Sequence record: MW735835.1
DNA length: 64,000 nt
Direction: 5' to 3' (one strand)
From: Pseudomonas phage pPa_SNUABM_DT01
Made by a program: the position numbers and the translations under genes. This document shows, in pieces, positions 27,576-61,304 of the stretch (positions are counted from its first letter, which is position 1; each line of letters starts with the position of its first letter). The notes beneath the pieces were generated by a model. It searched no databases. It saw only the letters and a program-made list of their open reading frames with translations, and was not told where the DNA came from.

Positions 27576-27606
27576 TGTGAGTGCCTCAATGAAGACGAAG
27601 GTACAC

Positions 27607-28359: not shown

Positions 28360-28374
28360 TCGAACTTTCCACAA

Positions 28375-28398: not shown

Positions 28399-28427
28399 CT
28401 TCAACCACCTCCGTGAGGAAGCAACAC

Positions 28428-29420: not shown

Positions 29421-29427
29421 CCCACAC

Positions 29428-29470
29428 GGACTGTGGAGCTAACCCCTCCACAGTCCTTATGCCGTGTTAC
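29428..29470 (+). terminator. hairpin ggactgtggagctaacccctccacagtcc followed by a TATGCCGTGTT box
   Basis: Begins 8 nt after the phuZ stop. Same TATGCC flank as other hairpins. Confidence 0.5.
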
Positions 29471-29487
29471 CGAGACAAGGAGATTCC

Positions 29488-29964
29488 ATGTCATCCACCC
29501 ATCCTGGCTACATCAGCGCTGCTCGCCTCGAAGACCTGCGCGACCTGTGCCAACCATCGCAGTTCAATACCACCGAAGAAGCCCACAGCGCCCTGCATAA
29601 CGGCATTATCGGTCTGCTCAAGAATACCGACAAACTCTGGGTCGATGCCCGGCGTTTGATCCCCGGTGACATGTTCATGAACGACGACGCCAGCGGTCGC
29701 GTGTTCATCGTCAAGGATCGTTTCTTCCATTACACCCACCATACCCGGCTGTCTCAGCGTATGGTGTTCGGTGAACCCCAAACCCCGCACGGGACCAACG
29801 TCCTGCAAGGCGAGTACCTCGAACTCTCCCTCAAGGACACTGTGCCCGGCGCATCGTTCTACGCATGCGTTCACACTGGTCTGATTTACAGCGCTGTCGC
29901 AGACAAAGACCCCTTCCCGGATTACAAGATCGGGAAGTCCGTTTACCTCATCACTAAGCCCTAA
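29488..29964 (+). CDS. hypothetical protein (158 aa)
   Basis: Strong SD aaggagattccATG. Track ORF 29464 trimmed to this start. Confidence 0.6.
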   Translation: MSSTHPGYISAARLEDLRDLCQPSQFNTTEEAHSALHNGIIGLLKNTDKLWVDARRLIPGDMFMNDDASGRVFIVKDRFFHYTHHTRLSQRMVFGEPQTPHGTNVLQGEYLELSLKDTVPGASFYACVHTGLIYSAVADKDPFPDYKIGKSVYLITKP

Positions 29965-35884: not shown

Positions 35885-35931
35885 GGAGAGTAGCTCTATT
35901 ATGAGCTACTCTCCGATACTTTATTTTTTCT
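35885..35931 (+). terminator. intrinsic terminator (ggagagtagctctattatgagctactctcc plus ttattttttctttt)
   Basis: Perfect 12-bp stem followed by a T-run. The ATG at 35901 annotated in the ORF track sits inside the hairpin loop. Confidence 0.7.
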
Positions 35932-35954
35932 TTTGTTGGGACAAGGCACGAGCG

Positions 35955-42924: not shown

Positions 42925-44388
42925 ATGAAAGAACGCAATGGCGTTTACTTGCGTGTGGTGAGTTACGACACCATGTTCATGCATCAGAGTCACCCTGCGA
43001 CCCTGATGAACGACTTCAACATCGATCTTGAGGCTGATCGTCTCAAGCTGAACAACCTCATTTATGCCTCTCTGGATGGCGACTCGCTGAACAACACGGC
43101 GAGCTGTGACTGTGGGCACATCACCGGCATGGACAACTATGGCATCCGCTGCCACGAGTGTCTGAGCCTGGTCATGCCCATCACCGAGAAACCACTGGAG
43201 ACTCTCCTGTGGATCAAGGTGCCGGCTGGCATCAACAAATTCATCAACCTGACGGTGTGGCGGATTCTGTCGAAGAACCTGACGCACTCGAACTTCAACA
43301 TCCTGGAGTACTTGTGTAACCCGCGTTACAACGCACCGAGTCCGTTAGCCGCGGACAAGATGCGCAAGTTGGAGCGCCTGGAAATCCCGCGTGGCTACAA
43401 CCACTTCGTTGACAACTACGAGGCCATCCTGGTCGCGTTGTTCAAAGCGGGGCTCATCGGTCCATCCGCTTCTGCCCGTAAGCGCCGCAAGATCATGCGC
43501 TTCTTGCAGGAGAACTTTGACCGGACGTTCTCGGAGTACCTGCCGTTCCCAACTCGGCTGGGCTTCATCAAGGAGAGCAGCAACAACCGTATCACGGCCG
43601 ACCCGAAGATGGTGGCTGCGGTCAACGCCGCGCACATCCTCATCGGTATCGACAACCGCGAGACGGTCGAGAACCAACCCAAGCTGTCCCAGGCCCAGAA
43701 AGAAGGACGCGTGGTCAACGCGCTCCAGAACTTCAACGATTACTACAAGACCTTCGAGTCCGAGGTGATCTTCAAGAAGCCTGGTATCGCTCGTAAGCTG
43801 ATTTACGGCACCCGGCCGTACTTCGGGTTCCGTGCGGTGATCACCTCCCGTCAGAAGCCTCACCGGCAAGATGGCATGGAGATGCCGTGGTCGGCAAGTA
43901 CACTGCTCTTTAAGGTGCACTTGCAGAACAAGCTGATCACCCAGGGCTACATCCCTAACGAGATGCAGGCCCTGATCTACGAGAACACGCTGCGCTGGCA
44001 CCCAGAGCTGGATCGGCTGTTCAAGGAGTTGCTGGCAGAAGCTCCCAACGGGACTATTCCCACCACCTTCGGTCGTAACCCGACCCTGACGCGTGGTTCG
44101 ATCGGCTACAACCAGATCGACACCATTAAGAGTGACCCAACGGACAACACCATCTCGATCAGCCCGCTGAACTTGATCGACAAGAACGCGGACTTCGACG
44201 GTGACGCGCTCTGGGGCGAGCTGCCGCTTGACCACAAGAACGCGAAGATCATGTCCCGCCTGGACCCGGTCACTGGCGTCATGGACCTCGACAAACCGTT
44301 TACCATCTCGCGAAATACGACGCTGCCGGCGCCGTTGATTGCGACGATGACGAATTGGCTCATCGAGGGCGATAAGGTATCCACATGA
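42925..44388 (+). CDS. multisubunit RNA polymerase beta-prime subunit, N-terminal fragment
   Basis: Catalytic motif NADFDGDALWG (NADFDGD). N-terminal Zn-finger-like CDCGH...CHEC. SD ggaaaggccaATG. The antisense ORF 43345..44235 was rejected. Confidence 0.8.
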   Translation: MKERNGVYLRVVSYDTMFMHQSHPATLMNDFNIDLEADRLKLNNLIYASLDGDSLNNTASCDCGHITGMDNYGIRCHECLSLVMPITEKPLETLLWIKVPAGINKFINLTVWRILSKNLTHSNFNILEYLCNPRYNAPSPLAADKMRKLERLEIPRGYNHFVDNYEAILVALFKAGLIGPSASARKRRKIMRFLQENFDRTFSEYLPFPTRLGFIKESSNNRITADPKMVAAVNAAHILIGIDNRETVENQPKLSQAQKEGRVVNALQNFNDYYKTFESEVIFKKPGIARKLIYGTRPYFGFRAVITSRQKPHRQDGMEMPWSASTLLFKVHLQNKLITQGYIPNEMQALIYENTLRWHPELDRLFKELLAEAPNGTIPTTFGRNPTLTRGSIGYNQIDTIKSDPTDNTISISPLNLIDKNADFDGDALWGELPLDHKNAKIMSRLDPVTGVMDLDKPFTISRNTTLPAPLIATMTNWLIEGDKVST

Positions 44389-46440: not shown

Positions 46441-47040
46441 ATGCAACTGACTCCCGATGATTTTGCCCGTCTGGAAGAGATGGATCGTGAAGCCAATGCC
46501 CGCCTGAGCGAGCGTGACTTTGTCGGTCGTCTGCTTCCGCACCTGATCCCGAACGAAGATGGCTCGGTGAGCAATCGCCGTGTAGACATCTATGTGGAAG
46601 CCGCTGGCCACGCTCAGCGCATGATCGACGTCTACGCTGACAACGATCCCACCAAGATCCTCTACACCGTTCCGCCGCTGATCAGCCCGACCCCGATGGT
46701 CATCCGTTCGGTCCAGGCCAACCCGGAAACCGACATCGGCGAACTGTCCGCCACGTTCGAGGCCCAGATCACCACCGCTCACCCGGGTGCTGTGATCGAA
46801 GCGTTCGTTCACCGCCTGATGGCGCTCAACTACAGCCCGGCTGACGCGATCTCCACCGTCTACAGCATGATGTGGGCGAAGATCTACCGTCGCTACAACA
46901 TCCCGCTGGAACGCCTGTTCGGCGAGAACGCCGCTGCCGTCGAGAAGCAGCTCGGCCTGGCTCCACAGGAAGAAGACGCCCAAGCGTCGAAAAGGACCGT
47001 ACTCAATGAGATTGCAGACGACGACATCGAACCGCTCTGA
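46441..47040 (+). CDS. hypothetical protein (199 aa)
   Basis: SD ggagataaggtcATG. Confidence 0.6.
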   Translation: MQLTPDDFARLEEMDREANARLSERDFVGRLLPHLIPNEDGSVSNRRVDIYVEAAGHAQRMIDVYADNDPTKILYTVPPLISPTPMVIRSVQANPETDIGELSATFEAQITTAHPGAVIEAFVHRLMALNYSPADAISTVYSMMWAKIYRRYNIPLERLFGENAAAVEKQLGLAPQEEDAQASKRTVLNEIADDDIEPL

Positions 47041-47047
47041 TTTGGTC

Positions 47048-48172
47048 ATGGCGTTCATCTCGGATATCCACCTGGCCCATCCGCGTACTTCCACGTACCA
47101 CATCATCCAGAACCTCCGCAAGGCGTTCCCGGACGATGAAGCCACGGGTAAGCTGGACATCCTGTTCTTCGCAGGCGACGTCTTTGACCGCCTAATGAAC
47201 CTGCCTCAGGATGAGGTGGACGCCATCCAAGAGTGGATTGGTGACGTTCTTCGCATCTGCGCCAAGCGTAACATCTTGGTGCGTGTTCTCGAAGGTACGC
47301 CCAGTCACGACTGGCGTCAGTCCAAACAGTTCGTCAACGTCAACAACACCCTGGATAAGCCAGCCAACCTGAAGTACGTCGATACCTTGAGTGTCGAAGT
47401 CATCAGTGAGCTGAACAACCTGAGTGTGTTGTACGTGCCGGACGAATGGAACGCTGACGCCAGCGTGACGCTCCAGCAAGCCAAGGAACTCCTGTCTATC
47501 CACGGGATGGAACAGGTGGACGTCGCTTGCATGCATGGCTCGTTCGATTACCAGCTTCCGATCGAATCGGTCAAGAACCACAACAGCGAAGCTTACTTGG
47601 CCATGGTGCGCCACTTCATCGGTATCGGTCACGTGCACATTCGCTCGGATCGGTCCATGCCAGCGTACAAGTCCATCATCCTGGCTCAGGGGTCGTTCGA
47701 TCGCCTGTCCCACGGTGAGGAAGCCGCCAAAGGACACTACAGGGCTTGCATCTCGTCTGTCGGTAACTACCACTGGTTTGTGGAGAACACCGGCGCACGG
47801 ATCTACAAGACCCTGGACTGCCGCGAGATGTCGGTGGATGAAACCATCGAGATGCTCGAGCATTACGAAGAGTACCCGGACGAGTCTTGCTTCCGTCTGG
47901 TGATCAAGCGCAACAGCACGGTGCAGCACGGCATGCGTGACTTGCGCAAGCGGTTCCCGCAGTTCAAGTTGACCACCCAGATGGATGACCTGAAAGCCCA
48001 GGAAGAAGTCAACCTGGTGCAGCCGCAGGTCAAGGCCGTCAAACCCATCAGCATCACGCCCACCAACATCGTGCATTTGGTCAGTGAGCGTTTGAAGCGG
48101 CGTTACGCCGAAGACGACCCTCGTGCCCAGAAGGTACTCAAGGTGTTGGTCAAGCATAAGGAGGCGTTATGA
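47048..48172 (+). CDS. SbcD/Mre11-type calcineurin-like metallophosphoesterase (recombination/repair nuclease)
   Basis: Motif I AFISDIHLAHP (D-x-H), motif II FFAGDVFDR (GDxxDR), motif III VLEGTPSHD (GNH[DE]-like) and downstream H-rich motifs (ACMHGSFDY, GIGHVH). Start chosen so that motif I sits at residues 4-9, as in SbcD; an upstream ATG at 47006 is also possible. Confidence 0.6.
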   Translation: MAFISDIHLAHPRTSTYHIIQNLRKAFPDDEATGKLDILFFAGDVFDRLMNLPQDEVDAIQEWIGDVLRICAKRNILVRVLEGTPSHDWRQSKQFVNVNNTLDKPANLKYVDTLSVEVISELNNLSVLYVPDEWNADASVTLQQAKELLSIHGMEQVDVACMHGSFDYQLPIESVKNHNSEAYLAMVRHFIGIGHVHIRSDRSMPAYKSIILAQGSFDRLSHGEEAAKGHYRACISSVGNYHWFVENTGARIYKTLDCREMSVDETIEMLEHYEEYPDESCFRLVIKRNSTVQHGMRDLRKRFPQFKLTTQMDDLKAQEEVNLVQPQVKAVKPISITPTNIVHLVSERLKRRYAEDDPRAQKVLKVLVKHKEAL

Positions 48173-49035
48173 GTGATCCACGGGCCATTGAGGCCGTCTC
48201 CAGCCGTGAGGTGGGGCAAATCCCCATCTCCATCGGTAGTAGTCTGGCCCTTGAGGGTGCGTTTGGCATCCTTGAGGATCACCCCAACCCGAACCCCATC
48301 ATCAACAATGTGGACGTCCTGTACGTCAACATCCGGACCCTGATCCGGAACATGGTGGGGGCCATCAACAGTGAGCAATTGACCTACGTCTTCCCCGAGG
48401 ACTTGGCCAATGCTTTGCTGAATGAGATCACGGTCCTGGAAGGGGCAGTGACTCGGGTGAGCAACGGCCGCGTCAAGGTCGTTCCTTATCTGTGCAACTA
48501 TCGGGGAATTCCCAAGAAGTTCCCGTACGCCATCCTGAAGAACGCTAACACCGAACGACAGAAAATGGCAGCGTTGAGGGAAGAGAACACGGTCATCGAG
48601 TTCCTCCACCTCTTGCAGCACCGTCCGGACATCCGGATCATCGAGACGGACATTGATCTTCAGCAGGATAACCGCAAGGTCCTGATGATGACCAGTTACG
48701 CCGTTGACTTGCTGCAACGCTACAAGTTCTCGTCCCTCACCCTGCTGGAGTCTCACACTGGCGCGGCGAAGCCGCCCGCTTTGTGGTACACCAAACTCAC
48801 CAATGGTAAGGAGTTGGAGCACATTCCGTTCGATCGGATGACGCTTCAGTTCTTTGGCGACAACGGCAACCTCTTTACCGGTTTTCCGATAAAGTTCCGC
48901 CGGGTGATGCTTGACATCGCCAAGAAAAACCGCTGGACAGCGCTGACGACCAAGGACTACATCATCCAATCCGTGAAGAAGGCTTACGAGCCGGAACTGG
49001 AGAAATTGGTGATGAATCTGTACGCGAAAGCCTGA
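48169..49035 (+). CDS. hypothetical protein (288 aa)
   Basis: ATGA overlap with the nuclease gene. Not coiled-coil or Rad50-like. Confidence 0.6.
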   Translation: MSDPRAIEAVSSREVGQIPISIGSSLALEGAFGILEDHPNPNPIINNVDVLYVNIRTLIRNMVGAINSEQLTYVFPEDLANALLNEITVLEGAVTRVSNGRVKVVPYLCNYRGIPKKFPYAILKNANTERQKMAALREENTVIEFLHLLQHRPDIRIIETDIDLQQDNRKVLMMTSYAVDLLQRYKFSSLTLLESHTGAAKPPALWYTKLTNGKELEHIPFDRMTLQFFGDNGNLFTGFPIKFRRVMLDIAKKNRWTALTTKDYIIQSVKKAYEPELEKLVMNLYAKA

Positions 49036-49116: not shown

Positions 49117-49890
49117 ATGAGTGAACAGAACCAGCGTCCGGAAACCATTCTGGACGATCCCAGTCTGGCCCTCAAAGCAAAGCGCCAGGACGGCATGGAG
49201 GGTGATCCCACTCTGCGCCCGGCCTATTACGAGAACAACCCGCGTCTGGTCGTGAAGACCAAGGTGCCCAACGACAAGAACAACGGCAAGATCGAGGCAG
49301 CGCTGTCCAACCGCGCTTTCTACTCCGTGCTGCGTGCTCTGGAAATGGTCGCCGAGTCCTCCAGTCCGATCGTGGTCTTCCTGGACAACAAAGGTCACCG
49401 CTTCGTCGACAAGAAGCGCGACCCGAACCCGTCCATCATGAGCTGCATCAAGCTCGAGAAGAACAACGAAGGCGTGATTTCGATCTGTATCAGTGCCGGT
49501 AAGAACCGTCCGCTGATCGAGTTCCCGTTCCTCGACTGCACCTATCACCAGTTCCGCGATGGCAACGGCAGCATGCCGGTGAGCACCGCGTCCAAGCTGT
49601 ACTGCCTGGGCTGGATCGACGTGATGCGCGAATACCTGCCTGCGGTCATCGAGAAGCACTACGCCAAGCCGGCGTGGATGGCTCGTCGTGAACAAGGCGG
49701 TGGCGGTAACAACAACTGGGGCAACCGCGGTGGTAACAGCGGTGGCGGCGGCAACTGGAACAACGGCGGCAATCGTGGCGGACAGCAGTCCGGCGGTGGC
49801 GGTGGTTGGGGCGGTGGTGGCGGTCAGCAACAGTCTGCAAGTGTGTCCGGCGGAAGTGATTTCAACTTCGACGACGACGTGCCTCTCTAA
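49117..49890 (+). CDS. SSB-like protein with a Gly/Asn-rich linker and an acidic SSB C-tail mimic
   Basis: C-terminus GGGGNNNWGNRGGNSGGGG...GGGGQQQSASVSGGSDFNFDDDVPL closely parallels the bacterial SSB tail (...GG...MDFDDDIPF). SD ggagatcagtaaATG. Confidence 0.5.
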   Translation: MSEQNQRPETILDDPSLALKAKRQDGMEGDPTLRPAYYENNPRLVVKTKVPNDKNNGKIEAALSNRAFYSVLRALEMVAESSSPIVVFLDNKGHRFVDKKRDPNPSIMSCIKLEKNNEGVISICISAGKNRPLIEFPFLDCTYHQFRDGNGSMPVSTASKLYCLGWIDVMREYLPAVIEKHYAKPAWMARREQGGGGNNNWGNRGGNSGGGGNWNNGGNRGGQQSGGGGGWGGGGGQQQSASVSGGSDFNFDDDVPL

Positions 49891-50044: not shown

Positions 50045-51607
50045 ATGCAGATTCATATCCATGAACTGTCGGGCAAGGGCATCACGATGCTCCGACTCGA
50101 GCACAAGGGTGAGCAGTTGCTGCTATCTGCGGGCAGCTATCACTCGGCGGCTATCATCAATCGCGAAGTGCTGTTCAAGGAGACCAACGAATTTCTGAAG
50201 TCCCTTCCGGACGAAGACCAGGATCGACTGTGGAGCATCTACCAGCGTGTGGATGACTACCTGTCGTCTGAAGAGATTCGTTCGTCCTTCTTTATCCGCG
50301 CCGAAGTGGAGCGGGTGGTCAAGGAGCTGTACCAGATCATCGGGTACCCGCAGCTTCGTGCGTTCATCGACAAGATTCGTCCGGACATCCCGGGCGACGT
50401 GAGTGAGAAGTTCGAGGAATTCAACGAACGTGGCCGGAACTACCGGAGCCGTACCTACATCAAGCCGGATTACCTGGACTTGGTGGCAATGGCCTTGGGC
50501 CTGCGTTTCATGGTGCCGGTCTGGGGCATGTACATCCAGAACGTCTCGTCCATCAACGGCAACGGCTACAAGGAATCCGAAGCGGTCAAGCTCATCGAGC
50601 TGGCTGGCGTGGATAAATGGCCGCCGTACATCCGGATGAACGAGTACATCGAAGCGAGCGTGGAGAAAGAAGTCAGCATGACCATGGTCATGGCCGGCCT
50701 CTCCTCCGAGGAAGTCCCGCGGCACCTGATGGCGATGGCCTTGGTCCGCAAGATTTCCATCGGCCCGCTGAGCACCACTCAGGAACGCGACAGCTTGGCG
50801 CGCATCCTGTTCAACTACGTTACGGGCACCCACCTGCGTATGGATGGGCGGTTTGCGAGTGTGACTGGCATCGTCCAGGCCAAACGCCACCGCAATCTGG
50901 ACAAAGGTGACGAGGACAACTCCTCGGTGCTGGACGACTACAACCAGACGACTGAGATCACCGAGGGTGATCGTCAGATGATCGAGGTCTTCAGTGAGAA
51001 TGTCGCGGTGATTGTGAACCGTGCAGCTCCTGACTTGGACCTGGCCCGGGTGCAGCAGTGCATCTCGGTCTGCTCACGGCACGAGGCCCGTCCGGTCGAA
51101 GCGTTCCAGAAAGCCATCGTGTTCTGGGTTCTGCGTTCCATCTCGCCGGAAGCGCGTGAGCTGCTGCTCAAGCGTACCCATTTCCGCCTGATGGGCATTG
51201 CGCAAGCAATCCTGGATCACTGGGGTTTCCACGAACTGGCCATCCTGGTCTCGGCGGAGGAGTACATCCACGAGGACGGTGAAGCTTTCATTCCGATGGA
51301 GACCCGTAACAAAATCACCCGTCAGCAAGCCGAGATTCTCGACAAGCAGTATCCGTACTACCGTCAGGAATCGAAGCGTCAAGACCCCGGCAAACGCGGC
51401 AACGTCGCGGTAATCGCCATCGACCAAGTCGTCGATTGGATGAGCGGCCGGGCTTGGAAGCCACATGCACCGCGCGACATCATCGAGAAGATCCCGTTGC
51501 TTTCTCAGACCGGGTACCTGTACATCTCTGGTGATATTCGCCGTCAACTAGCCGACATGATCATTCGTGTCAACAACAACCTGGGGAGCCAACATGCAAC
51601 TGCTTGA
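50045..51607 (+). CDS. hypothetical protein (520 aa)
   Basis: Balanced composition. The antisense ORFs 50123..50890 and 51074..51547 were rejected. Confidence 0.65.
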   Translation: MQIHIHELSGKGITMLRLEHKGEQLLLSAGSYHSAAIINREVLFKETNEFLKSLPDEDQDRLWSIYQRVDDYLSSEEIRSSFFIRAEVERVVKELYQIIGYPQLRAFIDKIRPDIPGDVSEKFEEFNERGRNYRSRTYIKPDYLDLVAMALGLRFMVPVWGMYIQNVSSINGNGYKESEAVKLIELAGVDKWPPYIRMNEYIEASVEKEVSMTMVMAGLSSEEVPRHLMAMALVRKISIGPLSTTQERDSLARILFNYVTGTHLRMDGRFASVTGIVQAKRHRNLDKGDEDNSSVLDDYNQTTEITEGDRQMIEVFSENVAVIVNRAAPDLDLARVQQCISVCSRHEARPVEAFQKAIVFWVLRSISPEARELLLKRTHFRLMGIAQAILDHWGFHELAILVSAEEYIHEDGEAFIPMETRNKITRQQAEILDKQYPYYRQESKRQDPGKRGNVAVIAIDQVVDWMSGRAWKPHAPRDIIEKIPLLSQTGYLYISGDIRRQLADMIIRVNNNLGSQHATA

Positions 51608-53096
51608 GATCGTATTCCGTGAGCGTCAGGGATACCGCGACATGCCGATTCGTCCGTTTGGTAGCGATGCTACTCCGGACTTGATCCGTATGCTCGACCA
51701 TGACACTCGTGGTGGCTCTGACATCGCGCCTGCTGCCCTTAGCCGCGTAGCTGGCCGTATCATCCGTCCATTGGCCAACACCCAAGGCCAGGCAATCATT
51801 GCCAACGGCTGGGGTGAGAAGCGCTTCATGTTCATCATGACCGTCCTGGTTCGTAAGACCACGACCGCGGTGTCGACGCTGGAAATCTCCGGCTACACCG
51901 ACCACGTAGGTGCTCACCAAGGCCTGCGTGGCATCTCGCTGGACGAAGACATGGCGATGTACTTCAACTCGATCACCGAGCTGAACCAGAGCTACATGGA
52001 CACCCCCACCGGTGGCGGCTGGCGCACCCAGATCGCTTCCTCCAACCACCTCATCACCCCGCAGACTCTGCCGGACTTCAGTCGTGACCGCCTCTCCCCG
52101 GGCACCATGACCATGCGCCCCGAGGACGTGTTCCACAACAACCCGAAGAACGTGGTGCAGAATGCGTTCCAGCGCCGTGCCTCGCAAGAGAACTGGCTGG
52201 ACATGCGCCATGGCTTCACGGGCAATGCCCTGCGGATGTCGAACCGCCTGAACGACAGCTCGACTCGCTTCCTGCACCGCTCCCTGCGAGCGCTGGCAAC
52301 GGCGAACGAAGGCGAAGTGTTCGGCCAAGATGGTCAATTCGACCGCGACACCAGCAAGATCCTCAAGGATGCCCGCAGTCAGGTCCGTGAAAAGACCCTC
52401 AGCGGTATTCCGGCTCTGGCCGAATTGGCCCGCGACACCAACATCCTCGACCAAGGTTTCATCACCTATGGCGAGCTGGTCGCAATGAACCCGGACTACC
52501 AGTGGAACGACGTCAAGATCTACTTCGCTACGCCGGAGATGACTCGTGACCACCGTAACCTGACCGGCTGGGGCGGCAAGGATAACACCACCATCGCCGC
52601 CAACCAGATCGCCCGGGCCCTGCCGACCTTCATGGCGTTCCACCACATCGGCTACGTCGAGTTCCATGCTGACAACATGTCGGCAATGGGTGAGCCGGTC
52701 GTGGTCATGCCGCAAGTCCTGCCGATGCTGGGCAAGCGTGTGACCGAACGGTCGCTGATGGCGTTCGAAGAGCGCCTGATCACCGAGATGTTCGTGGACA
52801 TGCTGCCGTGGGAGAACTGCATGTTCGACCTGGAGGTGAAGGCTGGCCTGAACAACGACATCGACATCTGGATTCAGCTCGAAGGCGAAGACCCGGGCGA
52901 GTTCAAGTTCCCGGTGTTCTGTGACTCCCTGGTAGCCCCGATCATCGTGGACGACCAGCGCACCATCGAAAGCATGAGCGAAACCATCAGCGGCATCGTT
53001 GACAGCCTGGGTAGCACTTATCGTGGCGACGACGACACCGGCTTCGAAGAAGGTCCGAGCATTCTCGATTCCACTGGCAACAAATTCAAGTTCTAA
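51594..53096 (+). CDS. hypothetical protein (500 aa)
   Basis: SD ggggagccaacATG. Overlaps the previous stop by 14 nt. The antisense ORF 51570..53900 (776 aa) was rejected. Confidence 0.65.
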   Translation: MQLLEIVFRERQGYRDMPIRPFGSDATPDLIRMLDHDTRGGSDIAPAALSRVAGRIIRPLANTQGQAIIANGWGEKRFMFIMTVLVRKTTTAVSTLEISGYTDHVGAHQGLRGISLDEDMAMYFNSITELNQSYMDTPTGGGWRTQIASSNHLITPQTLPDFSRDRLSPGTMTMRPEDVFHNNPKNVVQNAFQRRASQENWLDMRHGFTGNALRMSNRLNDSSTRFLHRSLRALATANEGEVFGQDGQFDRDTSKILKDARSQVREKTLSGIPALAELARDTNILDQGFITYGELVAMNPDYQWNDVKIYFATPEMTRDHRNLTGWGGKDNTTIAANQIARALPTFMAFHHIGYVEFHADNMSAMGEPVVVMPQVLPMLGKRVTERSLMAFEERLITEMFVDMLPWENCMFDLEVKAGLNNDIDIWIQLEGEDPGEFKFPVFCDSLVAPIIVDDQRTIESMSETISGIVDSLGSTYRGDDDTGFEEGPSILDSTGNKFKF

Positions 53097-53105: not shown

Positions 53106-54491
53106 ATGGATCTCCCCGAGTTCAACCAACGGGTGCTGAATAGCATCGGCATCGTCGATGAGACCGGCAAGGGTCACCTGAGCCGTGTCATCGGCCCTGG
53201 CCAGCTGAGCCCGCTCACCATCGGCGGTAAACGTGTGGTGCTGCCCACCAGCGAGCACATGCGCGAAGGTGGCGACAACATCATCATCTTCCACCCGCTG
53301 TCGGAGAACATCACCCGCAGCGAATCCGACATGATCAAGTCCATGCGTGACCAGATCATGTACCGCCTGACCCTGGTTGCCGTCGATCTGATCGACAACC
53401 TGGGCCGGGTGGCCGCCACTGACAGCCTGCACGCCAAGCTGGACAAGGAATCGCAGAAGTACCTCAAGCTGGTCTCCGGCATGGACGTACGCACCTACGA
53501 GTTCCTCAAGAAGCTGATCCTGCGTATCGGCCCGCAGCCCGAGAAGCGTCTGATCTCCATCAGCCTGCGTAAGGGCAAGAACGCCGACGGCGTGCTGCGC
53601 TCTGCCCAGTTCAAGTTCCCGGTCCTCCAGGAAATGCTGGCGAACGAGCAGGAAGTCCTGGGCCTGAAATACCCGTCGAAGAAAGCCCGCAACACCCTCA
53701 TCGCCCTGTTCGAGATCGTGTTGGGCAACGAGGAGCAGCGCGCTCAGTACGACTACGGCAGCAAGAACATGACGGCACCGTACTTCGATGCGCTGATGAT
53801 GGGCTTCCACCGCATCGCCACGCACCTGAACGACGTGACCCGACGCCACCGGAAGTTGCTGGGCAAAGCCGTCAATGCCGAAGGTGAAACCCAATCGCAC
53901 GATCTGGCTGACGACCTGCTGTTCGACCTGACCTGGGAAGAAGGTATGGACCAGCTCGCTGAGCTGCGCCGTATCGTTCCGCCGCAGGAAGGTAACGAAG
54001 GTGCCATCATCGTTGCTGAACCCGGTCAGCTGGACAAGGAGAAGGTGACCCAGCGTGCCGCTGCTCGCCTGGCTCCTGCTGCACGTGCATCCAGTGAAAC
54101 GAAGAAGGAAGAAGTGGTCGACGTACCGTGGGACACCGACGACAACCAGGGTGCCCGTAGCCCGCGCCGCGAGGAAACTCGCCGTGATGCTCCGGCCCCG
54201 GCCCGTAGCGGTAAGTCGCTCGATGACTTCCTGTATGGCGACCAGCGTCGTGATGACCGCCGTGACAGCCGTGACGATCGTCGCTGGGGTCGTGATGACC
54301 GCAGTCAGGCACGTTGGGGCCGTGACAGCCGCGATGACCGCGGTGGTCGTCGTTTCGACCTGGGTCTGAGCGATGACCGCGGTGGCGATAGCCGTTGGTC
54401 CAGCATGGACTTCCGCCGTGAAGAGCGTGGCAGTGGTTCGGGTCGCCGTCCCTTCGGGTCTGGTAACCAGGACAACCGCCGTCGCTACTAA
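53106..54491 (+). CDS. hypothetical protein with an RD/RGG-rich low-complexity C-terminal tail (possible nucleic-acid binding)
   Basis: SD aaggagtaagcATG. The C-terminal 110 aa consist of imperfect RDDR/RWGRD/RGG repeats (DQRRDDRRDSRDDRRWGRDDRSQARWGRDSRDDRGGRRFD...). Confidence 0.65.
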   Translation: MDLPEFNQRVLNSIGIVDETGKGHLSRVIGPGQLSPLTIGGKRVVLPTSEHMREGGDNIIIFHPLSENITRSESDMIKSMRDQIMYRLTLVAVDLIDNLGRVAATDSLHAKLDKESQKYLKLVSGMDVRTYEFLKKLILRIGPQPEKRLISISLRKGKNADGVLRSAQFKFPVLQEMLANEQEVLGLKYPSKKARNTLIALFEIVLGNEEQRAQYDYGSKNMTAPYFDALMMGFHRIATHLNDVTRRHRKLLGKAVNAEGETQSHDLADDLLFDLTWEEGMDQLAELRRIVPPQEGNEGAIIVAEPGQLDKEKVTQRAAARLAPAARASSETKKEEVVDVPWDTDDNQGARSPRREETRRDAPAPARSGKSLDDFLYGDQRRDDRRDSRDDRRWGRDDRSQARWGRDSRDDRGGRRFDLGLSDDRGGDSRWSSMDFRREERGSGSGRRPFGSGNQDNRRRY

Positions 54492-54504: not shown

Positions 54505-54540
54505 TAGAGGAGAGGGGCGACCCCTCTCCTCTTTCTTTGC
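54505..54540. terminator. bidirectional intrinsic terminator (agaggagaggggcgacccctctcctct plus tttctttg)
   Basis: Perfect 12-bp stem between the convergent genes 53106..54491 (+) and 54541..54879 (-). Confidence 0.7.
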
Positions 54541-54879
54541 CTAGATTCGCCCCGGCGTAAGACGGTACAGGTTCTTCAGGTTATCGACCACTCCTGGGTC
54601 GGGAACCATGATCTGTTTGAAATCCATTGTCATCTGGGTAGGACAATCGAAATTGTTGACGACCATGAAGATCAGCAAGTTTTCTATCGGGTACCCCAAT
54701 TCGATCATCAAGGAAGCGAAGTTGTACTCGAACTTGTGAACCACGCCCGGATCAAGGGCTGCCGGTACGCAGTTCGCTTTTAAGTAGGCTTCGTGAGCAT
54801 GCACAAAGCTAAGGAAGTCCGGCGAATGAAACATCGTATCGCCGCTGGCTACCATGAGTGAGTTCAATGCAGCAGTCAT
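54541..54879 (-). CDS. hypothetical small protein (112 aa)
   Basis: Minus ORF with normal composition. Confidence 0.55.
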   Translation of the reverse strand: MTAALNSLMVASGDTMFHSPDFLSFVHAHEAYLKANCVPAALDPGVVHKFEYNFASLMIELGYPIENLLIFMVVNNFDCPTQMTMDFKQIMVPDPGVVDNLKNLYRLTPGRI

Positions 54880-54900: not shown

Positions 54901-54926
54901 TCTTCAGAAATACATTATCTAGTTGG
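54901..54926 (+). promoter_or_regulatory. promoter-like box ttcttcagaaATACATTATCtagttgg (class B)
   Basis: Shares ttcttcagaa plus the AT box with 62491-62512. Located 38 nt upstream of the ATG at 54964. Confidence 0.5.
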
Positions 54927-54963
54927 CAAGCCAATGCTCACCTGTAGTGTAAGGGAGTCACCG

Positions 54964-57189
54964 ATGACAAGTAACCAGTCTGTCCAGGAGCAACTGGCTC
55001 AGTACTATGCTCAGTCCGCCCGTAATCCGGTGGAACTGCATCCTGAGTTGATGTCGCTCTATGGGCTCAACCCGTTTATCCGGCACATCTCCGCATCCCG
55101 TGCGGCTATGTTCACCGGCAACCTGGCACAAATGGTGGTAATCAAGGAGCCCACCAGGAAGCACATCATGACCCTGATGGAGCGTCCGTTTGCCGATACG
55201 ACGTTCTCGATTGAATTCGAGGACAACGTGCAGATCCTTAAAATCATCCCGCGCTTCGGCCACACCGCCGGTGCCAACCGTATCCGGCATTCGCCGCAGA
55301 CGGCCATCATTTACGAGAACCAGCGCACCAACGAGATCGGGGTGACGATGCTGACGGACTACCACGTCACGCACCAGCACTTCGGCACCGAGTTCAAGCG
55401 CAATCGTGACGTGATGGACCTGATGCGCGAGAAGGCGTACTTCAAGGCTGGTACCAAGCTGGCCCACAGTCCGCTGATTGACCAGTATGGCAACTACATG
55501 TACGGCCGCGAGACGAACGTGCTCATGGCGTCTGACGTGGCAGGGACTGAGGACGGTGTGAAGGCCCGTCGGGGATACCTGGAGAAGTTGGCCCCCACAG
55601 GATTTGAGACTCGTGTCTTCGAATTCGGGCGTGAGTTCTTCCCGACCAACCAATCCACAGTCCCCGGCATCTATAAGGTCATGCCTGACCTGGGCGAGAA
55701 GGTAAGCAGCACTGGCTTGCTGGTAGCGCTGCGCCGGTATGACCCGATCAGTGGCGTGGCCAACATGACCACCGAGGCGCTGCAACAGCCGGACTACATC
55801 TTCGACCGGAAGCGGTTCGTCCAACACATCGATGCTGAAGTGGTGGACATCAAGGTCGAACGCAACACCTCGATCAACATCCCGCCGTTGCCGGTGGGCA
55901 TGGAAGATCAGCTGCTCAAGTACTACAACGCCGACACCGAGTTCTACAAGAAGATCGTGGACTTCTGGTGGGAAAAGCGTAAAGAAGCGCGCAAGCGTGG
56001 GTACGAAGAGCTGCCGATGGAGCCGGAGTTCAACCATCTGGTGTTCGAAGCCATCGGCCGGGTTGGTCCTGACCATCTGCGGTCGGACCATGGGTTCAAC
56101 CGGAAGGTCGATGAAGCCGTCTCGGGCGGTAAAGTCGACAAGGTCTACCGCGGCGTGAAGCTGGACGCATGGCGCGTGGAGATCACCTTCAAGTACCTGT
56201 CCATCCCGAACAAGGGCTATAAGATCACCGACATCAACGGCAACAAGTCCGTCGTGGTCGAGGTGGTCGATGACGAAGACATGCCGGTCGACGAGAACGG
56301 AATCGTCGCTGACATCGTCGTAGACCCGAACTCCCGTTGGAACCGGGTAACACCAGCATCCCCGATCGAAATGGTGATCTCGGGTGCCGGGCGTGACCTG
56401 GGCAAGCGCCTCCAGCATGCCTTCGGGTTCCCCATGAACGATCAGTTGAAGGAGGATGAAGTAAACGACGTCGTCTATTCTCCCGAGAACCGTGATCTCG
56501 TGGAGTATTGGTTCGACGAGCTGATGGAGTTCTACAAGGTAGTCGCTCCGTACCAGTACGACGACCTCTCGGACCCCGAGTACCACCGCTTCAACCCGGA
56601 GTACAAGCACACGCAAGTGGCCGCAGTCATGCTGGATCACCTGCTGGGCATCGACCTCACCATGCCGACCGATAACCCGGTCCACATGCCGGATGTCATC
56701 CGCGCCATTCAGGAGCGCTGGCCTCCGTTCATCACCCCTGTCCGCTTCCGCGGCCGGGACGGCAAGATGAAGGTGTCCCGTGAGCCGATGCTGATTGCTC
56801 CGTCCTACTACATCAACCTGGAGAAGACCGCAGAAGACTCGTGGATGGCTGCATCGTCCGCGAAGTGCAACGTGTTCGGTACCACTGCGCGTCTGTCCAA
56901 CAACGACAAGTACGACTCTCCCGGTCGTCAGTCGTCCATTCGTGTCGGTGAGTCCGAGATTCGCTCGGAGTCCGCTGTCTGTGGTGGTGAAGCCACTGCC
57001 GATCAGAAGGACGCCTCCAACAACCCGATTGCGCACAAGTTCGTGCTCCGTCGGCTGTTGACCCACCCGACCCCGACCAACATCGAGGAGGTTCTCGATC
57101 GGAAGGTGGTTCCGGTAGGCGGGCATAGACCGTTGGCCTACATGCGCAACATGTTCGAATGCTCGGGCAAACAACTCACCAACGAATAA
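54964..57189 (+). CDS. multisubunit RNA polymerase beta subunit, C-terminal half
   Basis: DINGNKSVVVEVVDDEDMPVDENGIVADIVVDPNSRWNRV aligns with bacterial beta [38 protein letters not shown]. Downstream RVGESEIRSE parallels the conserved RFGEMEVWALE region. SD aagggagtcaccgATG. The 1482-aa antisense ORF 54958..59406 was rejected. Confidence 0.7.
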   Translation: MTSNQSVQEQLAQYYAQSARNPVELHPELMSLYGLNPFIRHISASRAAMFTGNLAQMVVIKEPTRKHIMTLMERPFADTTFSIEFEDNVQILKIIPRFGHTAGANRIRHSPQTAIIYENQRTNEIGVTMLTDYHVTHQHFGTEFKRNRDVMDLMREKAYFKAGTKLAHSPLIDQYGNYMYGRETNVLMASDVAGTEDGVKARRGYLEKLAPTGFETRVFEFGREFFPTNQSTVPGIYKVMPDLGEKVSSTGLLVALRRYDPISGVANMTTEALQQPDYIFDRKRFVQHIDAEVVDIKVERNTSINIPPLPVGMEDQLLKYYNADTEFYKKIVDFWWEKRKEARKRGYEELPMEPEFNHLVFEAIGRVGPDHLRSDHGFNRKVDEAVSGGKVDKVYRGVKLDAWRVEITFKYLSIPNKGYKITDINGNKSVVVEVVDDEDMPVDENGIVADIVVDPNSRWNRVTPASPIEMVISGAGRDLGKRLQHAFGFPMNDQLKEDEVNDVVYSPENRDLVEYWFDELMEFYKVVAPYQYDDLSDPEYHRFNPEYKHTQVAAVMLDHLLGIDLTMPTDNPVHMPDVIRAIQERWPPFITPVRFRGRDGKMKVSREPMLIAPSYYINLEKTAEDSWMAASSAKCNVFGTTARLSNNDKYDSPGRQSSIRVGESEIRSESAVCGGEATADQKDASNNPIAHKFVLRRLLTHPTPTNIEEVLDRKVVPVGGHRPLAYMRNMFECSGKQLTNE

Positions 57190-57201
57190 GCGGAGTAAGC
57201 A

Positions 57202-59304
57202 ATGCGTCGAATCAAAGCACGTGAGTTCATGAACCGCGACGTAATCGCGGAGTGGCCGCTGCCCGATGAGAAGTTGATTATCGAGTTCGACGACGGGGTT
57301 CTTGAGACCACCACTCGCCGTACCACGACGAGCTGGTTTTGCTGGGAGCTGCACCGGCAGTTCCCCCGCACCCCGCTGAACATCAACCACCACATCGGCA
57401 ATGGGTTCCCCAGCGCTGACATGATCCCCAAGACGCTGTCCAACATCGTCCGGGATCTGCACTACACGTACTTCACGCCAGGCAGCGAACTGGCAAACCA
57501 CGATCTGTGCTACGACCGGGAGGATGTGTGGCGCGTGGTGAAGGACGTCGGTAACGAGATCTACAACGTCCTGTCGGTCAATCTGGAAGAGTGGCATGTC
57601 CACATCAACGCCTTCCACCTGCTCGAGCTGTACGACTACCCGCCGTTGGTGGCGATTCGTGCGACGCTCAAGGATAACCAGCTCTCCATCTCCAACGCGA
57701 TGGACCGGACCTCTGAAGTCCTGATGAAGGACCCAGCGATCCTGCACAACCCCATCGTACGGGGGCTGCGTTCCAAGCAGATCAAGATGGGTCAGTTCTT
57801 GCAGATCATCCTCTGCTTGGGCTACCGGACCGACCTGGACCAGGTAATCTTCCGCAAGGCCATCACGGTCGGCTTCTTCGAGGGCCTGACCAAGATGCAC
57901 GACATCATGATCGAGTCGTGCTCGGCCAAGAAAGCGCTCATGTTCACCAAGAAGCCGCTGCGGATCGTCGAGTACTTCAACCGGAAGATGCAGCTGTCCA
58001 CCACCGTGGTCGACAAGCTCATCTGGAACGACTGTGGTTCGGACGTGTACGCCGAGATCCCGGTCGACACCCACCTCTGGTCCCACCTCGACGGCAAGTT
58101 CTACCTCGATGAGTCCACCCGCAAGTTGACTGCTATCCATGCGGACAACAAAGAGCAGCAGAAAGCGCTCAAGGGTAAGACCATCAAGATGCGCTCGGCC
58201 ATGTTCTGCCGTTACCGTGGTCGTGGTGAAGTTTGCCACGTCTGCTTCGGCGAGCTGGCTTGGTCCATCCCGCGGGAAACCAGCCTGGGTCACGTCTGTG
58301 CTACCGAACTCTGCCGGGAAGGTTCCCAGCGGACGCTGTCTGTGAAACACTTGGACGGCTCGTCGGTAGTGGAGGAAATCGTCATTGCGGAGGAACACCT
58401 GCCGTACATTGACGTCTGTGCCTCGGACCCAGCAGTGAACGACAACGGGGATGTGGAGGTGATGTCTGCCGCCACCGAAGAACTCCTGGGTGAAGCTGTC
58501 CCGGAAACCGCCCGTGAATCCTCGCTGCTGAAGTTCAACCCACGGCTGAAGAAGATGAAGCCGGTCATGATCCTGCCTGCCGCCCCGGACAAGAACACCG
58601 AGAACGCAGCGGGCCTGGCCGCCATCAACAGCGACACCGTCATCGAGCGCTTGAACATCCACCGGTTCACTTCGTTCCGCGAAGTTCAGATCCGTGTGAC
58701 CAACCTGCGCGAAGAAACCACCGATGCGTTCATCCCGGTCAGCCAGGGTGCACGGTTGGGTTCGCTGTCCCGCGTCATGCTGCACTACATCAAGGACCAC
58801 GGCTACACCGTTGACGAAGATGGCAACTATTGCATCGACCTCAGCGAGTGGGACTTCGGTGCTCCGGCGTTCTCCCTGCCGCGCCGCCATGCCAGTACGC
58901 TGGACTTCATGGCTGCGGTAGAGGCATTCATCCGCTCCCCGGCGAAGAAGTCGGAACGCAACGGCTTCAACGGCCGCATGCTGACCAGCTACGACGACCC
59001 GGTAGCAGCATTGCTGGACTTCAGTGATCTGGTGAACTCGCAACTGCGGGTATCCATCAGCCACCTCGAAGTGATCCTGCTGTCGCTGTCCCGTCCGGCG
59101 GATGACCCTGACGACTACCGTCTGCCGGACTTTGACCGGCCGATGAAGTTCGAAGAGCACCGGACCCTGATGCAGTATCGTTCGGCTGGCCAGCAACTGG
59201 CCTACGAGCGGCAGCCTGACATGATCGAAGATCCGGACAGCTACCTGATCACCAAGCGTCCGGCGGGTCTCCTGGACCCGTTCGTGTTCCCGGAAGTTAT
59301 CTGA
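57202..59304 (+). CDS. putative RNA polymerase beta-prime subunit, C-terminal fragment
   Basis: Immediately follows the beta fragment. Cys cluster CRYRGRGEVCHVCFGE...HVCATELC resembles the beta-prime second Zn site. Segment GQFLQIILCLGYRTDLDQV weakly resembles the bridge-helix region (..GYLTRRLVDV). No NADFDGD, as expected for a C-terminal piece. Confidence 0.4.
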   Translation: MRRIKAREFMNRDVIAEWPLPDEKLIIEFDDGVLETTTRRTTTSWFCWELHRQFPRTPLNINHHIGNGFPSADMIPKTLSNIVRDLHYTYFTPGSELANHDLCYDREDVWRVVKDVGNEIYNVLSVNLEEWHVHINAFHLLELYDYPPLVAIRATLKDNQLSISNAMDRTSEVLMKDPAILHNPIVRGLRSKQIKMGQFLQIILCLGYRTDLDQVIFRKAITVGFFEGLTKMHDIMIESCSAKKALMFTKKPLRIVEYFNRKMQLSTTVVDKLIWNDCGSDVYAEIPVDTHLWSHLDGKFYLDESTRKLTAIHADNKEQQKALKGKTIKMRSAMFCRYRGRGEVCHVCFGELAWSIPRETSLGHVCATELCREGSQRTLSVKHLDGSSVVEEIVIAEEHLPYIDVCASDPAVNDNGDVEVMSAATEELLGEAVPETARESSLLKFNPRLKKMKPVMILPAAPDKNTENAAGLAAINSDTVIERLNIHRFTSFREVQIRVTNLREETTDAFIPVSQGARLGSLSRVMLHYIKDHGYTVDEDGNYCIDLSEWDFGAPAFSLPRRHASTLDFMAAVEAFIRSPAKKSERNGFNGRMLTSYDDPVAALLDFSDLVNSQLRVSISHLEVILLSLSRPADDPDDYRLPDFDRPMKFEEHRTLMQYRSAGQQLAYERQPDMIEDPDSYLITKRPAGLLDPFVFPEVI

Positions 59305-59310
59305 CCATTC

Positions 59311-59340
59311 GAGGGGCCTTCGGGCCCCTCTTTTATTTTG
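59311..59340 (+). terminator. intrinsic terminator (gaggggccttcgggcccctc plus ttttattttg)
   Basis: Perfect GC stem with a uucg loop and a T-run, 6 nt after the stop. Confidence 0.75.
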
Positions 59341-59353
59341 CATGGAGGGCCTC

Positions 59354-59638
59354 ATGGGCCAACTGCGTATCAAAGAAGCTACCCTGTCCATGGAAGTCGG
59401 CGCCAAAGGCCACTTCTGCGTGGACAGTCTGTTCAGCGACCGTGAGATCGACGTGATCGATCAACTGTCCGTCCGGCTGGATGAGAAAGAAATCCAGGCC
59501 GACAACCCCAAGTTCGACATCACGATCAAGGACAACCACATCCACTACGTCCTGAAGGAAGGCCAGAATTCCTGGAACGACACCATCTCCTTCACTGCGT
59601 ATTTCGATCAGCCGGTGAATTGGCACCCGCATCGCTGA
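59354..59638 (+). CDS. hypothetical small protein (94 aa)
   Basis: SD ggagggcctcATG. Confidence 0.5.
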   Translation: MGQLRIKEATLSMEVGAKGHFCVDSLFSDREIDVIDQLSVRLDEKEIQADNPKFDITIKDNHIHYVLKEGQNSWNDTISFTAYFDQPVNWHPHR

Positions 59639-59750: not shown

Positions 59751-61304
59751 ATGAAAATTGATGTCTATAGCCACGCACTCAAGGTTACTGGCGTAACCAC
59801 AGAGCGTGACCTTCAGGCGATGTTGCAGTTCTGCCGACCCCTAATCGAGATGGGCTACGAGAAGAGGGGGAAGCGGTTTATCCCCAAGGGACTGCGAACA
59901 TTCGCCGCTGCTACGAAGAACCGACAGGAGTTCAGTTTCCACCGAAACCAGCTCCAGCAACTGAAAAGACACCTGTTCCAGAACTGCGGTTACGCAGAAC
60001 ACCTGGTCCCCATCACGCACCACCTTGTCGAAGACATCAAAGTCGAGAAAGTCAAGTTCGACGTCCGTCACATGCACCCGCCTCGTGAACGACAAGTGGG
60101 CATTATTCAGTACGTGCTTGATGATCAAGACCCCAAGTGGGACCCGATCATCAAGATGGTCACCTTGCAGACCGGCGGGGGTAAAACCTTCGTTGCGCAA
60201 TTCTGCATGAATGAGTTGGGTGTCCGCACCGTCATTCATTTCAAAGGTGGCTACGTGGAGCGCTGGAAGAACGACTTGGAGGAAACCTTCAAGTTCAAGC
60301 GCGGGGAGTTCCTGATCGTTCGGGGCTCCAAGGACCTGATCGCTCTCCAGCAGATGGCACTGGATGGCGACATCAAGGCCCAGGTGATCATCATCACCTC
60401 CGCCACCATGCGTGACTACATCAAGAACTACGAGGAATCCAACGGCAACAGCAAGATCTACCCGATCAAGCCGATTGACTTCTACCCGAAACTGGGTGTG
60501 GGTTTCCGTACCACTGACGAACTGCACCAAGAGTTCCACAACAACTACCGCATCGACCTGTACACGCACATCCCAAAAGCGCTCGGTCTGTCTGCCACGA
60601 TGACCAGCTCGGATGCGTTCAAGAACCGGATGTACGACATCGGCTACCCTGTCATGCAGCGTCACGACGGCGGTGGGTACAACGTCTACATCGGTGTGAC
60701 AGCTATCCTCTACCACATGGACCCCGAGGTCCGTATCCGCTACATGGGTGGTCAGGGTTACTCGCACACCACGTTCGAAGAATCCATCATGCGGCACAAG
60801 GGCCTGCTGAAGAACTATCTGCGCATGATTGACCACGCGATTTACAATCGCTACGTCTCGGTGCGTGAGGAAGGTCAGAAGGCACTGGTGTTCTTCGCCC
60901 GGGTGGACCTGTGCACGCTCATGGTGGAACGTCTCAAGAAGATGTACCCTGAGCTGAACGTCGTGCGGTACGTGGGTTCTGAAGGCGACTCGTACGAAGA
61001 ACTGCTGGAAGCGGATATCGGTGTCACCACCATCGGCTCTGGCGGTACGGCGATTGACATCAAGAACCTGCGGTGCTCGTTCATGACTACCGCGATTGAC
61101 TCCCGTCAATCCAACGAACAAGTGCTTGGTCGGACCCGTCCCCTCAAGGACTGGCCTGATATCACGCCTGAGTTCATTTACTTCGGCTGCCTCGAGATCG
61201 AGCAGCACTGTAAGTACCATCGCAACAAGATCGAGTTCTTCAAGGGCAAGGTCCTGTCGCACATGGAGGTCATGTCCAAGTACGTGCTCCAGCTGCAAGG
61301 TTGA
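59751..61304 (+). CDS. SF2 DExH-box helicase
   Basis: Motif I LQTGGGKTFVA (GxGKT), motif II TTDELHQ (DExH), motif III ITSAT (SAT) and motif VI QVLGRTRP (QxxGRxxR). The antisense ORF 59841..61343 was rejected. Confidence 0.7.
   Translation: MKIDVYSHALKVTGVTTERDLQAMLQFCRPLIEMGYEKRGKRFIPKGLRTFAAATKNRQEFSFHRNQLQQLKRHLFQNCGYAEHLVPITHHLVEDIKVEKVKFDVRHMHPPRERQVGIIQYVLDDQDPKWDPIIKMVTLQTGGGKTFVAQFCMNELGVRTVIHFKGGYVERWKNDLEETFKFKRGEFLIVRGSKDLIALQQMALDGDIKAQVIIITSATMRDYIKNYEESNGNSKIYPIKPIDFYPKLGVGFRTTDELHQEFHNNYRIDLYTHIPKALGLSATMTSSDAFKNRMYDIGYPVMQRHDGGGYNVYIGVTAILYHMDPEVRIRYMGGQGYSHTTFEESIMRHKGLLKNYLRMIDHAIYNRYVSVREEGQKALVFFARVDLCTLMVERLKKMYPELNVVRYVGSEGDSYEELLEADIGVTTIGSGGTAIDIKNLRCSFMTTAIDSRQSNEQVLGRTRPLKDWPDITPEFIYFGCLEIEQHCKYHRNKIEFFKGKVLSHMEVMSKYVLQLQG

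Follow-up and report, generated by a model that had tools for sequence, protein, structure and literature searches.

We analysed a 64,000-nt stretch of Pseudomonas phage pPa_SNUABM_DT01 (sequence record MW735835.1), referred to here as the window, and describe a pair of adjacent open reading frames (ORFs) within it, 54964-57189 (ORF1) and 57202-59304 (ORF2). With a probability that we put at about 0.95, these genes code for two components of a five-subunit non-virion RNA polymerase (nvRNAP) of the phiKZ type in a nucleus-forming jumbo phage (chimallivirus), namely the C-terminal halves of beta (betaC) and of beta-prime (beta-primeC). PhiKZ has two paralogous split RNA polymerases (RNAPs), a virion enzyme (vRNAP) consisting of gp178, gp149, gp180 and gp80 and a non-virion enzyme consisting of gp55, gp68, gp71-73, gp74 and gp123 (PMC8287921). 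An initial annotation, made from the DNA letters, had proposed a split multisubunit RNAP of the phiKZ type at this locus, and sequence, profile, fold and synteny evidence all support that proposal.

The betaC and beta-primeC genes

Comparison of ORF1 with solved structures gave a full-length match to phiKZ gp71-73 (PDB 7OGP_C), with residues 37-747 aligned on 11-693 at an E value of 4.4e-105. The profile phrog_3295 was matched from position 7 to 690 of its 698 positions (E 1.5e-176), and phiKZ gp71 and gp73 map onto the two halves of this same profile. ORF1 also matched the Pfam family RNA_pol_Rpb2_6 above the gathering score (E 7e-9) and the nvRNAP of Bacillus phage AR9 (E 8e-13), while its active-site block matched archaeal, eukaryotic and bacterial second-largest subunits, on E. 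coli beta at residues 1032-1128 only. Phage proteins gp71-73 have been assigned to beta motifs a10-a16 (Yakunina 2015, PMC4666361). On these matches ORF1 is a full-length orthologue of phiKZ gp71-73 and the betaC half of nvRNAP, and the initial view of it as the C-terminal half of beta without the N-terminal one was correct.

The catalytic features of beta are found where they would be expected from this alignment. The segment KITDINGNK (nt 56221-56247) includes the two lysines of the double-psi beta-barrel (DPBB), K420 and K428 in the 741-aa numbering, which align with K386 and K394 of phiKZ gp71-73; the DNA/NTP-contacting (NTP, nucleoside triphosphate) role of these lysines has been described in phiKZ (PMC8287921). 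The sequence GNKSVVVEVVDDEDMPVDENGIVADIVVDP occupies nt 56239-56328, and SRWN comes next at 56332-56343, so that the GNK, EDMPxDENG, DIVxxP and SRxN block read initially in ORF1 is present in full, as is the RxGExE motif near the C-terminus, which here takes the form RVGESE. The active-site motifs were conserved in 15 of 15 betaC relatives, and the ratio of nonsynonymous to synonymous substitution rates (dN/dS, Nei-Gojobori, four relatives) was 0.09-0.13. The longest frame of ORF1 opens at ATG 54934. We regard the second ATG, at 54964, as the likelier start, since a Shine-Dalgarno sequence (AAGGGAG) lies 7 nt ahead of it and the GGGAG-ATG arrangement is kept in 13 relatives, most of them without an in-frame start further out; the start coordinate first assigned was thus the right one.

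For ORF2, the corresponding searches identified phiKZ gp74, both as a structure (PDB 7OGP_D, E 3.9e-71) and as the family phrog_3015 (E 2.4e-156). We then used a family profile, built from an alignment of 30 metagenomic ORF2 homologues, which also served as the basis of an AlphaFold2 model. This profile matched gp74 with an E value of 3e-189 and bacterial beta-prime with E values of ~1e-13 to 4e-16, the latter on E. coli beta-prime 690-942, where the bridge helix and the second zinc site lie and the trigger loop begins. The match to AR9 nvRNAP was 1.5e-9 with the single sequence and 3e-35 with the family profile. The model had a mean pLDDT (predicted local distance difference test) of 77.9 and a predicted template-modelling (TM) score of 0.65, and its top Foldseek match was again phiKZ gp74 (8QUE_D, E 4.5e-45, TM 0.75/0.80), followed by AR9 (TM ~0.5) and then by bacterial beta-prime (E ~1e-11). 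By sequence and modelled fold, ORF2 is the gp74 orthologue and the beta-primeC half of nvRNAP, which upholds its initial description as beta-prime C-terminal-like.

The functional elements of ORF2 were placed by alignment to gp74, for which the residue ranges of the bridge helix, zinc ligands and trigger helix are published (PMC8287921). The segment called bridge-helix-like at the outset corresponds to aa 232-269, modelled as two helices (232-248 and 251-269), and the Cys cluster seen at the same time resolves into C278, C336, C345 and C348, all four invariant in the 30 homologues. The trigger-helix segment, which includes GHVCATELCREGSQRTLSVKHLDGS, begins at aa 360, with the first trigger helix at aa 360-378, and its trigger residues are likewise invariant in the 30 homologues. 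The dN/dS of beta-primeC was 0.10-0.19 by the same method with four relatives.

Past the first trigger helix, ORF2 aa 398-503 (nt 58393-58707) align poorly to phiKZ gp74, and aa 408-439 are acidic and were modelled with pLDDT <50. Here the trigger-loop region probably carries a variable insertion specific to the lineage.

Assignment to the non-virion enzyme and its other subunits

The phiKZ RNAP proteins were translated from the phiKZ record and compared with the window by tblastn, and the same proteins were scanned against PHROG in order to identify their families. All nvRNAP queries except gp123 found counterparts: gp55 (E 5e-64) and, contiguous with its match, gp56.1 (E 2e-6); gp68 (E 5e-47); gp71 (E 2e-55) and gp73 (E 9e-47); and gp74 (E 8e-72). 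The vRNAP proteins gp80, gp149, gp178 and gp180 gave no match in the window better than E 0.03, and the families into which the phiKZ vRNAP proteins fall (phrog_3148, 3233, 2986 and 2962) were never the best match for a window ORF. ORF2 did match the gp80 family, phrog_2962, at 5e-7, a cross-match of the same size as that of phiKZ gp74 itself (1.5e-7). Judged by profile family and tblastn, every RNAP piece in the window is nvRNAP and not the virion enzyme. Profile searches and a comparison with phiKZ gp71-74, gp123, gp80 and gp149 had been suggested by the initial annotation as checks; the placement in the RpoB/RpoC families held, through Pfam Rpb2_6 for ORF1 and the family profile for ORF2, and gp71, gp73 and gp74 matched while gp123 and the vRNAP proteins gave nothing significant.

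These comparisons also bear on the possibility that both genes belong to the virion-packaged RNAP (the gp178/gp149/gp180/gp80 set), injected with the DNA for early transcription. Chimalliviruses do encode two paralogous split RNAP sets, and besides the weak cross-match of ORF2 to phrog_2962 there is a gp80 tblastn match at nt 58015-58254 with an E value of 0.033. However, the nvRNAP subunits match ~100-150 orders of magnitude better and over their full length, gp74 shows an equal cross-match to the gp80 family, the vRNAP betaC-type families phrog_3233 and phrog_3148 are unmatched, and the locus is colinear with phiKZ gp54-gp75, the home of the nvRNAP genes. We rejected the virion-RNAP assignment as very improbable.

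Four of the five nvRNAP subunits (beta-primeN, beta-primeC, betaC and the gp68-like protein) are encoded inside the window. The NADFDGD fragment pointed out initially at 42925 is the catalytic motif of beta-primeN, at nt 44185-44205 within ORF 42925-44388, which matched PDB 7OGP_A (PHIKZ055) with an E value of 1.3e-72 and phrog_2987 with 2e-133. The genes at 50045-53096 had been left as unassigned candidates for polymerase parts, with the beta N-terminal half (betaN) still to be placed. Neither of them is betaN, and we rejected both in that role: 50045-51607 is the gp68 homologue, matching PDB 7OGP_B (PHIKZ068; E 7e-45, 1-509 on 1-516) and phrog_3209, the phiKZ gp68 family (E 5e-92), and 51567-53096 is by tblastn a homologue of gp69 (Imp1). 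The gp70 homologue that follows had no match among solved structures.

In six-frame translations of the window, neither phiKZ gp123 nor the betaN of relative L071, whose beta-primeC is 79% identical to ORF2, found anything better than E 0.3; searches of this kind gave 1e-47 or better for the other subunits, and we conclude that the window does not encode betaN. It does occur in relatives with 78-87% identical beta-primeC. Where IMG/VR relatives carry both genes, contig ranges place betaN on the same strand ~121-138 kb downstream of beta-primeC, as on contig 3300011767_000001, where no wrap-around is involved (beta-primeC at 36.5-38.6 kb, betaN at 159.6-161.3 kb). In Ga0122014_10008 (276,554 bp), beta-primeC (27,527-29,629) is 87% identical to ORF2 and betaN (P0205) lies on the same strand at 160,348-162,003, a separation of 131-142 kb on the circularly permuted map; this betaN is preceded by the major capsid gene, of phiKZ type, and by a gene of 375 aa, as in the gp120-gp123 neighbourhood of phiKZ. 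The betaN copy of this clade was not among the proteins listed with phiKZ gp123 as query, and three IMG/VR scans found betaN in relatives at 70-79% identity and missed it in the 276-kb relatives at 87-88%. The betaN of the 276-kb relative was located by a protein search with clade betaN together with contig look-up.

Genome context and a proposed transcription unit

The window comes from a divergent phiKZ-like, nucleus-forming jumbo phage. Its GC content is ~57% (52-61% per 2-kb bin), and GC by codon position in real window genes is ~0.58/0.38/0.80. Protein identity to deposited phages is at most ~34%; the closest deposited phage for betaC is Burkholderia phage FLC9 (33.5% identity), and megablast of the 4.4-kb polymerase region against deposited phages gave no match, so that no near relative is in culture. 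A scan of IMG/VR for exact 31-mers was likewise without a match and did not recover the source contig. The protein family comprises ~80 metagenomic clusters, with 28 IMG/VR loci. The chimallin-nucleus context is present in that chimallin, PhuZ and the gp69/Imp1 homologue are all encoded in the window (Table 1), which also holds, by PHROG, the chimallivirus core genes for tail sheath, large terminase, PhuZ tubulin (phrog_4733) and DNA polymerase; these four matches confirm the phage family. Gene order follows phiKZ gp54-gp75 and is identical in a relative with 87% identity. Roles for Imp6 and Imp1 have been described (bioRxiv 10.1101/2024.03.27.586873).

Table 1. Coordinates of the polymerase genes, their motifs and other features of the window.
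Feature	Coordinates	Strand	Basis or remark
nvRNAP beta C-terminal half (betaC), phiKZ gp71-73 orthologue, 741 aa	54964..57189	+	PDB 7OGP_C, phrog_3295, Pfam; no endonuclease insertion
Shine-Dalgarno AAGGGAG of betaC	54950..54956	+	7 nt before ATG 54964
beta DPBB active-site block: K420, K428, then GNK...EDMPVDENG...DIVVDP...SRWN	56221..56343	+	
RVGESE motif close to beta C-terminus	56941..56958	+	
nvRNAP beta-prime C-terminal half (beta-primeC), phiKZ gp74 orthologue, 700 aa	57202..59304	+	7OGP_D, phrog_3015, family profile, AlphaFold2 model
Shine-Dalgarno GGAG of beta-primeC	57192..57195	+	within 12-nt spacer past betaC stop
Bridge helix, aa 232-269 (phiKZ gp74 L242-Y279)	57895..58008	+	ungapped alignment, 10-residue offset
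Zinc-binding cysteines C278, C336, C345, C348 (phiKZ C288, C341, C350, C353)	58033..58245	+	alignment to gp74
First trigger-loop helix and conserved ...SVKHLDGS segment, aa 360-387 (phiKZ T365-V383)	58279..58362	+	
nvRNAP beta-prime N-terminal subunit (beta-primeN), phiKZ gp55 + gp56.1 equivalent	42925..44388	+	uninterrupted
nvRNAP fifth, sigma-like subunit, phiKZ gp68 homologue	50045..51607	+	
gp69-like (Imp1), nuclear import factor homologue	51567-53096		tblastn 2.5e-31
gp70-like	53106-54491		
Candidate phage promoter element ATACATTAT	54910..54918	+	46 nt upstream of betaC start
Terminator-like hairpin, 12-bp stem and T-rich tail	54506..54532	+	closes upstream gp68-gp70-like block
Terminator-like GC hairpin, then TTTTATTTT	59311..59330	+	directly after beta-primeC stop
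Chimallin (gp54)	40925-42832		Pfam PF25677 E 1.9e-33; phrog_4795
SbcD-like nuclease	47006-48172		
gp66-like	48169-49035		
gp67-like (Imp6)	49117-49890		
Helicase (gp75)	59751-61304		
Tail sheath	10359-12539	-	PHROG
Large terminase	17902-20121	+	PHROG
PhuZ	28374-29420	+	PHROG
DNA polymerase	35901-38240	+	PHROG

The 12-nt spacer, a Shine-Dalgarno sequence for each gene and the strong terminator-like hairpins on either side suggest that betaC and beta-primeC form one bicistronic transcription unit. Two relatives, L134 (IMGVR_UViG_3300042923_000281) and L142 (IMGVR_UViG_3300037294_000266), have a gap of ~250-285 bp between the two genes, opening with a different small ORF, so the 12-nt junction is not universal in the clade.

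The motif upstream of betaC belongs to a pattern, ATACAT(T/G)AT, that is enriched in the window, with 12 sites at no more than one mismatch against 2.8 expected, a count that none of 100 shuffles reached, and "atacattat" is kept upstream of betaC in relatives L142 and L145. A sigma-70 promoter scan found none upstream of betaC and no overall enrichment. The element is a candidate phage-specific promoter, possibly of the early (vRNAP) class. Eight + strand copies, at 4754, 5500, 7731, 22378, 28377, 40837, 49999 and 54910, have a TTCGAA-like box ~15 nt upstream and often GTG ~5 nt downstream, and lie ~45-90 nt ahead of gene starts that include those of chimallin, the gp68-like gene, betaC and PhuZ. 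The arrangement does not match sigma-70 spacing.

Two small reading frames adjoin the proposed unit. One, a minus-strand gene of 112 aa (54541-54879), lies after the gp70-like gene and before betaC and matches phrog_3455, a family of unknown function, with an E value of 7e-15; it is conserved in place in a 276-kb relative (L004, 7331-7669), and the corresponding position in phiKZ is taken up just by gp70.1, a small ORF on the + strand. The other, a 98-aa + strand ORF (59342-59638), follows the beta-primeC terminator and precedes the helicase gene; at its place a gene of 117 aa is called in relative L004 (12151-12504), and in phiKZ gp74 and gp75 overlap directly. The 1,482-aa antisense ORF at 54958-59406 (-) was rejected as a gene: with a GC content of 0.79/0.38/0.59 at the three codon positions, the mirror image of real genes, it is explained by codon bias. 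Most window genes are shadowed by similar long antisense ORFs.

Proposed function, alternatives and comparison with known systems

Together, betaC and beta-primeC would supply half of each side of the active-site cleft in a five-subunit RNAP without alpha or omega. BetaC would contribute the flap, a portion of the clamp and the DPBB, in which two lysines contact DNA/NTP, and beta-primeC would bring in the trigger loop, the bridge helix and the Cys4 zinc site; their predicted partners are beta-primeN with the Mg-binding DFDGD, the gp68 homologue and a betaN encoded far outside the window. In phiKZ the split nvRNAP is an active enzyme whose gp68 subunit is required for assembly and promoter binding (PMC4666361, PMC8287921); its subunit genes are early genes and its targets are the middle and late ones (PMC10914365), and its import into the phage nucleus depends on Imp1 (bioRxiv 10.64898/2026.09.21.753271). 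By analogy, the genes described here would be transcribed early by the injected virion RNAP, and the assembled complex may be imported into the chimallin nucleus via Imp1, whose homologue sits between the polymerase genes, there to transcribe the middle and late genes of the phage with no need of alpha, omega or host sigma.

Nothing contradicts the assignment of the two genes, and four points limit it. Residue E433 of betaC (nt 56260-56262), five residues past the GNK lysine, is Glu here and in 15 of 15 clade relatives, whereas phiKZ gp71-73 has Lys (K399) at this place, as does E. coli beta at the equivalent position (K1073). Pfam applied to ORF2 alone finds no family, even at E 1, and PF04998 is reached by only 2 of the 30 ORF2 homologues, so the family profile and the fold search were needed to establish the link to beta-prime. 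We read co-transcription, the promoter role of the motif and the function of the terminators from sequence alone. Finally, the betaN of this genome lies outside the window, and we infer its existence from relatives.

A reading of the two ORFs as decayed or truncated, non-functional remnants of a captured cellular rpoB/rpoC operon would account for the missing N-terminal half of each and for the beta-then-beta-prime order that bacterial rpoBC operons share, but it is exceedingly improbable. Both ORFs are intact and have their own ribosome-binding sites, and the low dN/dS (0.09-0.19 against four relatives per gene) together with the conserved active-site, zinc and trigger residues excludes decayed fragments as well as frameshift artefacts; catalytic lysines, zinc cysteines, and the bridge and trigger helices are conserved across 15-30 homologues. 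Relatives show neither neutral evolution (dN/dS near 1) nor broken reading frames. The same split architecture is active in phiKZ (PMC4666361, PMC8287921), and cellular beta and beta-prime share very little identity with these proteins and can be aligned over only ~100-250 residues. Equally little probability attaches to a sequencing or assembly frameshift that divided a longer, fused beta or beta-prime gene: GC-rich sequence does tolerate long open frames, as the 1,482-aa antisense ORF and many overlapping ORFs illustrate, but the same boundaries (stop, short spacer, Shine-Dalgarno, ATG) recur in independent assemblies of several metagenomes and in phiKZ, the ORFs correspond in length to gp71-73 and gp74 from one end to the other, and betaC has upstream of it an unrelated gene on the opposite strand.

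The nvRNAP assignment settles the annotation of a 17-kb block that carries four of the five nvRNAP subunits along with Imp1/Imp6-like import genes, and broadens, through a divergent clade of dozens of metagenomic members, the sequence diversity from which the truly invariant nvRNAP residues can be found. The architecture, subunit roles and gene order are already established for phiKZ, and the known view of phage transcription is unchanged. A bolder proposal would be that the window represents a GC-rich chimallivirus lineage (genomes of ~250-277 kb, many metagenomic members, at most ~34% core-polymerase identity to cultured phages) in which E433, beta-primeC aa 398-503 and the ATACAT(T/G)AT element with its TTCGAA-like box together point to promoter specificity or catalytic regulation unlike that of phiKZ; we regard this as rather unlikely.

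Of the known systems, the phiKZ nvRNAP (PDB 7OGP/7OGR/8QUE/9RJS) is the closest counterpart. Four subunits occur in the same order with full-length alignments, the neighbours are the same (chimallin, SbcD, gp66, gp67/Imp6, gp69/Imp1, gp70 and helicase gp75), and both enzymes share DFDGD, the two DPBB lysines, a bridge helix, a Cys4 zinc site and a trigger helix. The two systems differ in that identity is just ~24-33%, the genome described here has ~57% GC, and an extra 112-aa opposite-strand gene separates the gp70-like gene from betaC. In phiKZ, gp72 (unnamed in RefSeq) interrupts the betaC gene and the HNH endonuclease gp56 the beta-primeN gene, whereas both genes are continuous here, and betaN and beta-primeC, which are ~54 kb apart in phiKZ, are separated by ~120-140 kb in clade relatives. 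The phiKZ virion RNAP, carried in the virion for the transcription of early genes (PMC8287921), is likewise a split beta/beta-prime multisubunit enzyme and a distant paralogue, as the cross-match between the zinc/trigger region of ORF2 and the gp80 family reflects, but it belongs to different profile families and has no significant match in the window.

The nvRNAP of Bacillus phages AR9/PBS2 (PDB 7S00, 7S01, 7UM0) shares the split beta and beta-prime and a fifth, promoter-specificity subunit, but is a much more distant relative than the phiKZ enzyme. AR9 is not known to be a chimallin-nucleus phage. Its enzyme is reported to recognise deoxyuridine-containing template-strand promoters (PMC9209446), a property that should not be carried over to the enzyme described here. 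Cellular RNAPs, including the split forms (cyanobacterial and chloroplast RpoC1/RpoC2; archaeal B'/B'' and A'/A''), have the same active-site architecture, although the alignable part is the catalytic core only, and the phiKZ enzyme needs no alpha or omega homologues (PMC8287921). The ORF2 family profile aligns to cyanobacterial RpoC2 from ~residue 118-126, which puts the phage beta-prime split within tens of residues of the cyanobacterial one. Unlike in the cellular split forms, both large subunits are split here, and their halves are scattered around the genome.

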